DNA of 64,000 bases from Escherichia coli (GTDB lineage Bacteria; Pseudomonadota; Gammaproteobacteria; Enterobacterales; Enterobacteriaceae), in the NCBI RefSeq assembly GCF_024223415.1, contig NZ_CP100501.1, one strand, 5' to 3'. The position numbers and the translations under genes are program-made. Below, in pieces: positions 6,178 to 7,044 of this stretch (position 1 is its first letter; each line of letters opens with the position of its first letter). The notes beneath the pieces are model-generated. The model was not told the DNA's origin. It was given only the letters and a program-made list of their open reading frames with translations, and made no database searches.

Positions 6178-6198
6178 TGCCACTGCTGGATAAGCTGC

Positions 6199-7044
6199 GT
6201 GAGCTGCAGTGAGCTGCATATTGCCCCGTCAACGTATTACCACTGTCAGCAACAGCAGCATCATCCTGATAAACGCAGCGCCCGTGCGCAGCGTGATGAC
6301 TGGCTGAAGAAAGAGATACAGCGCGTATACGATGAAAATCACCAGGTGTACGGTGTGCGTAAAGTCTGGCGTCAGTTGTTACGGGAAGGTATCAGAGTGG
6401 CCAGATGCACTGTGACACGTCTTATGGCGGTTATGGGTTTTGCCGATGTTCTCCGGGGTAAAAAGGTCCGCATTACCGTCAGCCGGAAAGCCGTTGCCGC
6501 AGGCGACCGCGTAAACCGTCATTTCGTGGCAGAACGTCCTGACCAGCTGTGGGTGGCTGATTTTACTTACGTCAGCACATGGCAGGGCTTTGTTTATGTG
6601 GCGTTCATCATTGATGTGTTTGCCGGATACATCGTGGGATGGCGGGTCTCCTCGTCCATGGAAACGACATTCGTGCTGGATGCACTGGAGCAGGCGTTGT
6701 GGGCCCGTCGTCCATCTGGCACCATCCATCACAGCGATAAAGGCTCTCAGTATGTATCGCTGGCCTACACGCAGCGGCTTAAGGAAGTCGGATTACTGGC
6801 ATCAACAGGGAGCACAGGCGACTCGTATGACAACGCGATGGCGGAGAGCATCAATGGTCTTTACAAGGCGGAGGTAATACACCGTAAGAGCTGGAAAAAC
6901 CGGACAGAAGTGGAGCTGGCTACACTCACGTGGGTGGACTGGTATAACAATCGACGATTGCTGGAAAGGCTGGGCCATACTCCCCCGGCAGAAGCAGAAA
7001 AAGCTTATTATGCTTCCATCGGAAACAATGATCTGGCAGCCTGA
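6199..7044 (+). CDS. IS629-like OrfB (DDE transposase); N-terminal coding region shifted out of frame by a 20-bp deletion
   Basis: 281-aa ORF from an internal GTG; copy 3 encodes 296 aa starting [17 protein letters not shown]. Confidence 0.8.
   Translation: MSCSELHIAPSTYYHCQQQQHHPDKRSARAQRDDWLKKEIQRVYDENHQVYGVRKVWRQLLREGIRVARCTVTRLMAVMGFADVLRGKKVRITVSRKAVAAGDRVNRHFVAERPDQLWVADFTYVSTWQGFVYVAFIIDVFAGYIVGWRVSSSMETTFVLDALEQALWARRPSGTIHHSDKGSQYVSLAYTQRLKEVGLLASTGSTGDSYDNAMAESINGLYKAEVIHRKSWKNRTEVELATLTWVDWYNNRRLLERLGHTPPAEAEKAYYASIGNNDLAA

Follow-up and report, generated by a model that had tools for sequence, protein, structure and literature searches.

Insertion sequences of the IS629/IS1203/IS3411 group (1310 bp) belong to the IS3 subgroup of the IS3 family, where orfB is read in the −1 frame of orfA. 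IS629 subtypes differ from one another by 4-5%, with IS1203 and IS3411 counted as isoforms (Rump et al. 2011). Programmed −1 frameshifting in IS3411 and in at least 27 other insertion sequences is stimulated by the ALIL pseudoknot, where the apical loop of one hairpin, near the site of shifting, base-pairs with an internal loop in a second hairpin located 44-104 nt downstream (Atkins et al. 2016, citing Mazauric et al. 2008). Internally deleted or truncated IS copies are also described in E. coli and Shigella, for example the truncated IS629 of O55:H7 and pO157; such decayed copies are kept in place, inherited with their replicon and available as substrates for recombination.

Here we analyzed three IS629-group copies found within a 64,000-nucleotide stretch of Escherichia coli DNA (contig NZ_CP100501.1 of assembly GCF_024223415.1), referred to below as the window. 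Copies 1 and 2 resemble the described group in their terminal repeats, first stem-loop, slippery region and catalytic open reading frame (ORF) with its HTH_21 and rve domains, where their orfA product differs by 1-3 amino acids and overall identity to the compared subtypes is 94-95%. In contrast to that group, they measure 1290 bp, lack 20 bp of the orfA/orfB overlap region, carry a broken second stem-loop and do not have orfB in the −1 frame. The family trait of a −1 orfB is thus present in copy 3 and absent from copies 1 and 2, which would make the latter degenerate IS3 family members by descent and not functional ones. They resemble the truncated O55:H7 and pO157 copies in being decayed, but differ in that the lesion is a small, precise deletion, both ends and the ORFs are otherwise whole, and the allele appears to have been copied onto other IS629-group elements by recombination.

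Identity and setting of the three copies

Inspection of the terminal repeats, together with alignment, delimits the copies as follows.

5797..7086, + strand: copy 1, a 1290-bp IS629-group (IS3 family) element with the 20-bp deletion
44056..45345, + strand: copy 2, 1290 bp, sister of copy 1, within a partly deleted IS1414
49184..50493, − strand: copy 3, 1310 bp, of a different IS629 subtype
50113-50439, − strand: orfA of copy 3
49226-50116, − strand: orfB of copy 3 (296 aa)

Each of the three ends in terminal inverted repeats of ~25 bp in the form 5'-TG ... CA-3' (TGAACCGCCCCGG... and ...CCGGGGCGGTTCA), where the left repeat shows 1 mismatch between copies 1/2 and copy 3 and the right ends are identical over their final 27 bases. 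Three-way alignment of the copies opens a single 20-column gap and zero further indels. Copies 1 and 2 are one base apart (6446 A versus 44705 G, 99.92% identical) and are indeed the sisters that an initial annotation of this DNA had taken them to be. Being copies of one allele, they do not share the gap by coincidence. That annotation had also described the deletion relative to copy 3. The 20-bp gap is real, but copies 1 and 2 are not simply copy 3 minus 20 bp, as 76 further positions differ besides the gap (94.1% identity) and the subtype is another one.

Copies 1 and 2 are 94.4% identical to an IS1203-family element and 95.0% identical to a chromosomal copy of PE164. By the usual ISfinder rule, an isoform has at least 95% nucleotide identity to a named insertion sequence. 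Given their 94% identity to copy 3 and the published 4-5% distances among subtypes, copies 1 and 2 are best classed as another IS629 subtype and not as derivatives of copy 3. Copy 3 itself looks intact at the sequence level.

Extended by 200 bp per side, copy 1 matches pAPEC-O1-ColBM (NC_009837.1) and 24 other records at 100%, many of them poultry plasmids, and its neighbors are an aatA-type autotransporter gene on one side and eitD on the other. The best match to positions 38000-52000 of the window is pCh101 (98.9%); pAPEC-O1-ColBM carries only one deletion-bearing place versus the two present here. Judged by such matches, the setting is a ColV/ColBM-type virulence plasmid from avian pathogenic E. 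coli.

The 20-bp deletion and the frameshift signal

Exact string matches and alignment both recover the lesion shared by copies 1 and 2. The string CTGGATAAGCTGCGTGAGCTGCAGTGAGCTGCATATTGCC occurs at 6186-6225 and 44445-44484, each time on the + strand, while TACGGGGTCGGACCGGTATG has a single occurrence in the window, at 50064-50083 on the − strand.

6204/6205, + strand: deletion junction of copy 1, 20 bases missing (AGTACGGGGTCGGACCGGTA in the closest relatives), placed by alignments
44463/44464, + strand: deletion junction of copy 2

With copy 3 as the sole reference, the gap can be placed just as well at TACGGGGTCGGACCGGTATG. The closest relatives that keep the 20 bp (CP099214.1, the IS629 of Shigella pCP301 and the truncated pO157 copy) identify AGTACGGGGTCGGACCGGTA, flanked by GAGC and TGCAG, as the bases lost. 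Since CP099214.1 reads GTGAGC[AGTACGGGGTCGGACCGGTA]TGCAG at the junction, AGTACGGGGTCGGACCGGTA is taken as the segment lost; its counterpart in copy 3 lies at 50064-50083 in the TACGGGGTCGGACCGGTATG placement or at 50066-50085 in the nearest-relative placement.

Copies 1 and 2 have their nearest relative in CP099214.1 (98.6% identity over shared positions), which is itself decayed, having 8-bp and 1-bp deletions. No intact full-length relative of the copy 1/2 lineage above 96.3% identity was found by BLAST among PLSDB plasmids. None of the other IS629-group elements in the alignments lacks the 20 bp, these being copy 3, CP099214.1, the IS1203-family element, the PE164 chromosomal copy, the Shigella pCP301 IS629 and the truncated copy of pO157 Sakai, and the segment missing from copies 1 and 2 forms part of the Rfam ALIL consensus. 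Because a 98.6%-identical relative still has the 20 bp, the short form is a deletion, with the long form ancestral and the 1290-bp form derived. The converse idea, raised at the outset, that the short form could be the functional wild type finds no footing, as all reference-type sequences compared and ~5,000 RefSeq records carry the 20 bp.

Slipped-strand deletion between direct repeats was considered as the origin of the gap and set aside: GTGAGC repeats lie 26 bp apart, yet both are kept. Microhomology at the junction is absent when compared with the nearest relative and amounts to 2 bp (TG) when compared with copy 3.

The deleted segment falls within the region that governs frameshifting, for which the following features were identified.

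50042..50158, − strand: complete ALIL pseudoknot of copy 3 (Rfam RF01497, 116.2 bits, all 117 model positions; RNA fold)
6138..6142, + strand: TTTTG, the likely −1 slippery site, 4 nt (GCGA) 5' of stem-loop 1, whose start is A6146; TTTTG is intact in copies 1 and 2
6147..6163, + strand: stem-loop 1 of copy 1, GGCGG AGTTCGA CCGCC, kept, its apical loop left without a pairing partner (Rfam alignment, RNA fold)

TTTTG is likely the shift site, a putative assignment drawn from its location where the Rfam ALIL model is unpaired on the 5' side, from the open −1 frame and from Atkins et al. (2016). Copy 3 matches the whole of RF01497, the pseudoknot known from IS3411 (Mazauric et al. 2008), whereas copies 1 and 2 match it in part. 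In copy 3, hairpin 1 reads GGCGG-AGUUCGA-CCGCC and hairpin 2 reads ACGGGGU-CGGACC-GGUAUGCAG...CUACAUAUU-GCCCCGU, where the loop bases GUUCGA, as read from the sequence, are complementary to the internal loop UCGGAC. The 20 missing bases correspond to the 5' arm of the lower stem of stem-loop 2, its internal loop and the start of its upper stem. What copies 1 and 2 therefore retain is the slippery region, stem-loop 1 and, of stem-loop 2, the 3' half alone, and an RNA fold of copy 1 keeps hairpin 1 and loses hairpin 2. The ALIL pseudoknot is thus predicted to be unable to form in either short copy.

Copies 1 and 2 nevertheless score 63.8 bits against RF01497, above its gathering score of 50, with 29 model positions collapsed to 3. 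The surviving 5' part accounts for this score, and because it passes the threshold, automatic annotation labels these copies 'ALIL pseudoknot'. The Rfam/PGAP label is misleading, since half of the fold is missing; both short copies should count as dead.

Coding capacity and sequence drift

The consequences of the deletion for coding were read from the ORF list, from translation and from profile matches.

5851..6177, + strand: orfA of copy 1, 108 aa, HTH_Tnp_1 (Pfam PF01527, 48 bits), intact, with TAA at 6175-6177
6177..6212, + strand: remnant of the orfB start of copy 1 in the −1 frame, ATG 6177-6179, 11 codons and TGA 6210-6212, a dead end (translation)
6199..7044, + strand: catalytic ORF of copy 1, 281 aa from GTG, HTH_21 and rve (DDE integrase core) (ORF list, Pfam, NCBIfam)
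44110-44436, + strand: orfA of copy 2
44469-44471, + strand: dead-end TGA of copy 2
44458-45303, + strand: catalytic ORF of copy 2

In copy 3, the −1 frame stays open from TTTTG across the orfB ATG until the catalytic ORF ends, and the reconstructed 404-aa OrfAB covers the whole NCBIfam IS3-transposase profile (positions 1-369) at 356-360 bits with either candidate slip site. Two IS629 frameshift products have reportedly been seen, with T4G and A4G sites. Copy 3 and the downstream ORF of copy 1 both contain HTH_21, rve and rve_3, with matches to NCBIfam NF033516 ('IS3 family transposase'), where the catalytic ORF of copy 1 covers profile positions 107-369 by its Pfam and NCBIfam matches. Because 20 is not a multiple of three (remainder 2), this ORF leaves the −1 frame and enters the frame of orfA behind the TAA. 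In copy 1, 7 sense codons separate the orfA TAA from the GTG of the catalytic ORF in that same frame. As the deletion is downstream of both candidate slip sites, the result does not depend on which is used, and both candidate fusions of copies 1 and 2 reach 120 aa only, versus 404 aa for copy 3.

As the −1 frame halts at TGA 6210-6212, no OrfAB transposase would result, and we infer that the fused protein cannot be made from copies 1 and 2. OrfA can still be made, as far as its reading frame indicates, and an N-terminally trimmed OrfB may possibly be made as well. The shared 20-bp deletion, the lengths of 1290 versus 1310 bp, the 11-codon dead end and the displaced catalytic ORF had all been proposed in the initial annotation, and alignment, exact string matches and translation agree with each of them. 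Its start for the dead-end ORF, 6178, is one base off, and its account of the deletion is incomplete, because the frame is shifted as stated but half of the ALIL pseudoknot is removed as well.

The sequence of events suggested by these features can be outlined as follows. In this group, OrfAB is made solely when the ribosome slips by −1 near the end of orfA, likely at TTTTG 6138-6142, and slipping is stimulated by ALIL, as the GUUCGA loop of stem-loop 1 pairs with UCGGAC, an internal loop lying ~50 nt downstream in stem-loop 2. One ancestral deletion of 20 bp removed, from stem-loop 2, this internal loop together with the 5' arm. On copies 1 and 2, a ribosome that shifts would then halt after 11-12 further codons to give the 120-aa product, and one that does not shift would halt at the orfA TAA. 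The allele would subsequently have been passed on with plasmids and copied among IS629-group copies by homologous recombination or gene conversion.

Substitutions arising after the deletion were counted at positions where four outgroups agree and seven deletion-bearing copies vary. There are 7 nonsynonymous changes, all in the catalytic ORF, and one 1-bp frameshift, versus 1 synonymous change, which lies in orfA. The frameshift is common to copies on LH10-type plasmids and to strain 135, and the copies located downstream of trbC (site C below) carry a Y-to-N change beside the region of the DDE glutamate. In contrast, orfB of the intact subtypes shows 11-13 nonsynonymous versus 36-42 synonymous differences, a contrast with the deletion-bearing copies for which the Fisher test gives p about 9e-4. 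The catalytic ORF is thus drifting under relaxed selection. OrfA acts as an inhibitor in this IS family, and the OrfA protein is identical in all seven deletion-bearing copies compared, which is compatible, at such small numbers, with weak selection for OrfA.

RefSeq annotates the element of copy 1 as 'IS3 family transposase, frameshifted', a pseudogene. Copies 1 and 2 are ordinary IS pseudogenes already flagged as such. Dead IS629-type copies raise no new biological question, and their relevance lies mainly in annotation and in the reading of IS629 copy number: counting such copies as active would distort the transposition potential estimated in IS629 typing or copy-number studies of APEC and ExPEC plasmids.

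Distribution and spread of the short form

To define its distribution, the deletion allele was searched with a 60-bp junction probe in 5426 complete E. coli genomes at E <= 1e-12. The default E-value is unspecific for a probe of this length, as its 30-mer halves passed at E = 8e-6 and long-form elements appear as two-piece matches. The 1290-bp variant, which the initial annotation had suggested looking for elsewhere, was located at 55 places; these fall in 44 records, belonging to 42 of the 5426 genomes, with 52 on plasmids and 3 on one chromosome, that of strain 135. In PLSDB, 17-19 plasmids carry the junction, all from E. coli and with poultry predominating. A junction scan of one genome per species (GTDB) gave no match, and a metagenome scan returned 2 contigs with the junction, both variants of known contexts. 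The hosts of the allele are almost all ColV/ColBM-type plasmids, and it occupies at least four contexts, listed here from a survey that covers ~45 of the 55 places, with one of the three on the chromosome of strain 135 among them.

Site A, between aatA and eitD: 25 records; holds copy 1
Site B, inside IS1414: copy 2 of the window; GF60 and pCh101 with both flanks, LH10-type plasmids with the left flank only
Site C, downstream of trbC: AR_0085, XDL and HB42
Site D, a chromosomal island adjoining iucABCD: strain 135

Inspection of the flanks reveals no target-site duplication of 3-4 bp at copy 1 (ATT/ATA), copy 2 (CTT/GTT) or copy 3 (CGC/AAC). In all, none is seen at six deletion-bearing flank combinations, site C, the LH10-type plasmids and the strain 135 chromosome among them, or at the 2 metagenome contigs, one of which is contig L011. 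Cross-matching left flanks to the right flanks of different copies likewise gave no match of 3 or 4 bp. For copy 2, both flanks belong to the same interrupted element.

43802..44055, − strand: IS1414 (IS256 family) 3' fragment, directly adjoining copy 2 on its left, named from the RefSeq annotation of homologous loci
45346..45804, − strand: 5' part of the same IS1414, 153 N-terminal transposase codons, abutting the right end of copy 2

Between these flanks, ~530 bp of IS1414 are absent and no target-site duplication is present. When reverse-complemented, 50494-50708, which lies beside copy 3, matches positions 43802-44016 at 100%, such that copies 2 and 3 form inverted repeats 3.8 kb apart with an identical IS1414 fragment abutting each. 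Given this inverted arrangement and the shared fragment, recombination or gene conversion between the two is expected.

Several deletion-bearing copies are mosaic. The HB42 copy contains an IS629-type patch at element positions 544-650, the chromosomal copy of strain 135 is of IS1203 type from ~position 980 onward, and the first ~230 bp of the element on contig L011 are foreign. In pCh101, the element at the site occupied by copy 3 in the window is a chimera, where the first ~1,080 nt are of the 1290-bp type, including the deletion, and the last ~230 nt and the right flank are of copy-3 type. This chimera offers a small, clean case from nature in which recombination between inverted copies has carried an inactivating lesion into a copy at another site that was intact before. 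Mosaic and chimeric copies of this kind point to recombination, and not transposition, as the mover of the allele, and homologous recombination together with plasmid inheritance would be sufficient for its spread.

Taken with the drift described above, it is probable that copies 1 and 2 are pseudogenised, non-autonomous IS629-group copies in neutral decay, spread as their plasmids are inherited and through homologous recombination or gene conversion. The strongest competitor, which we nonetheless consider unlikely, is that the copies are defective yet mobile, their ends being recognized by OrfAB from copy 3 or from a chromosomal IS629 or IS1203, and that copy 2 and the other contexts arose through transposition in trans. 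Because the terminal repeats are intact and nearly those of copy 3, which looks intact, such mobilization is possible in principle, and OrfAB supplied from another plasmid acts on a disabled IS1203v/IS629 derivative when measured as excision, according to the summary of Kusumoto et al. given in bioRxiv 10.1101/2023.06.07.543989. The number of contexts, and the single-base distance between copies 1 and 2 despite their unrelated flanks, would also fit. Later recombination could have erased target-site duplications, but none is seen at any deletion-bearing copy examined, the mosaics and chimeras offer a sufficient other route, and copy 2 comes with the loss of IS1414 sequence and not as a simple insertion. 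A total of 55 places in 5426 genomes, nearly all within one plasmid group, is also unlike active amplification. The initial annotation had judged copies 1 and 2 to be impaired in transposition unless complemented by copy 3. Its first half stands in that no transposase of their own is predicted; for rescue in trans, the flanks without duplications, the mosaics and the pCh101 chimera provide no positive sign.

A related and still less probable scenario grants the short form a function, as a maintained 'OrfA-only' derivative moved in trans by an IS629/IS1203 transposase, its OrfA dampening transposition and excision of IS629-group elements on ColV/ColBM plasmids and in their hosts. Published assays in which OrfA alone depressed IS1203v excision bear on this scenario.

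We regard it as very improbable that copies 1 and 2 encode a working alternative architecture, in which readthrough of the TAA would fuse the two ORFs or a shortened OrfB' from GTG 6199 would act with OrfA. The 0 frame has one stop only between orfA and the catalytic ORF, and the 281-aa product retains HTH_21 and rve. However, the 7-to-0 ratio of nonsynonymous to synonymous changes in that ORF, the frameshift in two lineages (LH10-type and strain 135) and the Y-to-N change in the site C copies are the opposite of what selection for function would leave, and such drift argues against both readthrough and split-protein function. A TAA followed by T is an efficient terminator in E. coli, which counts against readthrough, and OrfB alone is without the N-terminal DNA-binding domain needed by IS3-family transposases, which counts against a split protein; IS629 OrfB is moreover reported to reduce transposition.

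Finally, that the polarity is reversed, with the 1290-bp form ancestral and 20 bp gained by copy 3, or that the gap is a sequencing or assembly error, can be given virtually no credence, since the 20 bp occur in all other subtypes and in the 98.6% relative, are base-paired in the Rfam ALIL model and encode conserved OrfB residues, and since the identical junction in 44 independent RefSeq records and 2 metagenome contigs speaks against an assembly artefact. A subgroup of ColV/ColBM-type plasmids can conveniently be traced as a lineage by the junction sequence.

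Spread of the deletion among IS629-group copies

The 20-bp deletion shared by copies 1 and 2 is also present in two composite elements outside the window:

34566-35855, L015 (plasmid pCh101, NZ_CP127318.1): chimeric IS copy, occupying the site of intact copy 3 in the window
19623-20911, L006 (strain 135 chromosome, NZ_CP080260.1): copy carrying the deletion, its 3' part of IS1203 type

Inspection of the pCh101 chimera reveals a 1290-type 5' part, deletion included, fused to a copy-3-type 3' end. In this case, recombination passed the inactivating lesion from one IS copy to another. 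The strain 135 copy neighbours shiF-iucABCD-iutA and sitABCD within a chromosomal island, an arrangement that looks like integration of a ColV-plasmid virulence block, via IS recombination, into the chromosome. Two more places on the same chromosome match the 60-bp deletion-junction probe.

The ALIL pseudoknot label on copies 1 and 2

Both deleted copies are still annotated with the frameshift-stimulating element:

6132-6218, "ALIL pseudoknot" (Rfam; PGAP in RefSeq), copy 1
44391-44477, "ALIL pseudoknot" (Rfam; PGAP in RefSeq), copy 2

The label persists because the 5' half alone exceeds the gathering score (63.8 versus 50 in Rfam for each region). Stem-loop 2 is unable to form in either region, and the label is an annotation pitfall.

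IS1414 as a possible preferred insertion target

Copies 2 and 3 each adjoin a remnant of IS1414 (IS256 family):

43802-44016, IS1414 3' fragment adjoining copy 2 (insertion point 44055/44056)
50494-50708, IS1414 3' fragment adjoining copy 3 (insertion point 50493/50494)

These fragments are 100% identical and mutually inverted. The two insertion points lie 39 bp apart in IS1414, each with a GATCAC motif two bases before it. Because IS629-group elements also reside within IS1414 on many other plasmids, IS1414 is suggested to be a preferred target of the group.

Neighbouring loci and other repeats

Toxin-antitoxin loci in the window include the following:

43174-43799, AbrB/MazE-type antitoxin and PemK/MazF-type toxin pair
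55817-55904, - strand, AgrB (Rfam, 51.8 bits)
58936-59092, + strand, sok antitoxin RNA (Rfam, 125.6 bits)

The protein pair lies immediately upstream of copy 2 and its adjoining IS1414 fragment, next to a 900-aa relaxase gene (40436-43138). The sok and AgrB matches fit, as expected, type I loci of an IncF/IncI-type plasmid backbone. A second IS3-family element forms an inverted pair (723-1953 and 46264-47494; 1231 nt at 96%), one member of which sits upstream of the autotransporter gene; copies 2 and 3 flank the other. By its 301-aa and 136-aa ORFs (46275-47548, - strand) it looks like IS2. Two direct repeat pairs, 27229-27528/34160-34459 (97% identical) and 28871-29072/35215-35416 (93%), are spaced by about 6.3-6.9 kb, which suggests a diverged segmental duplication.
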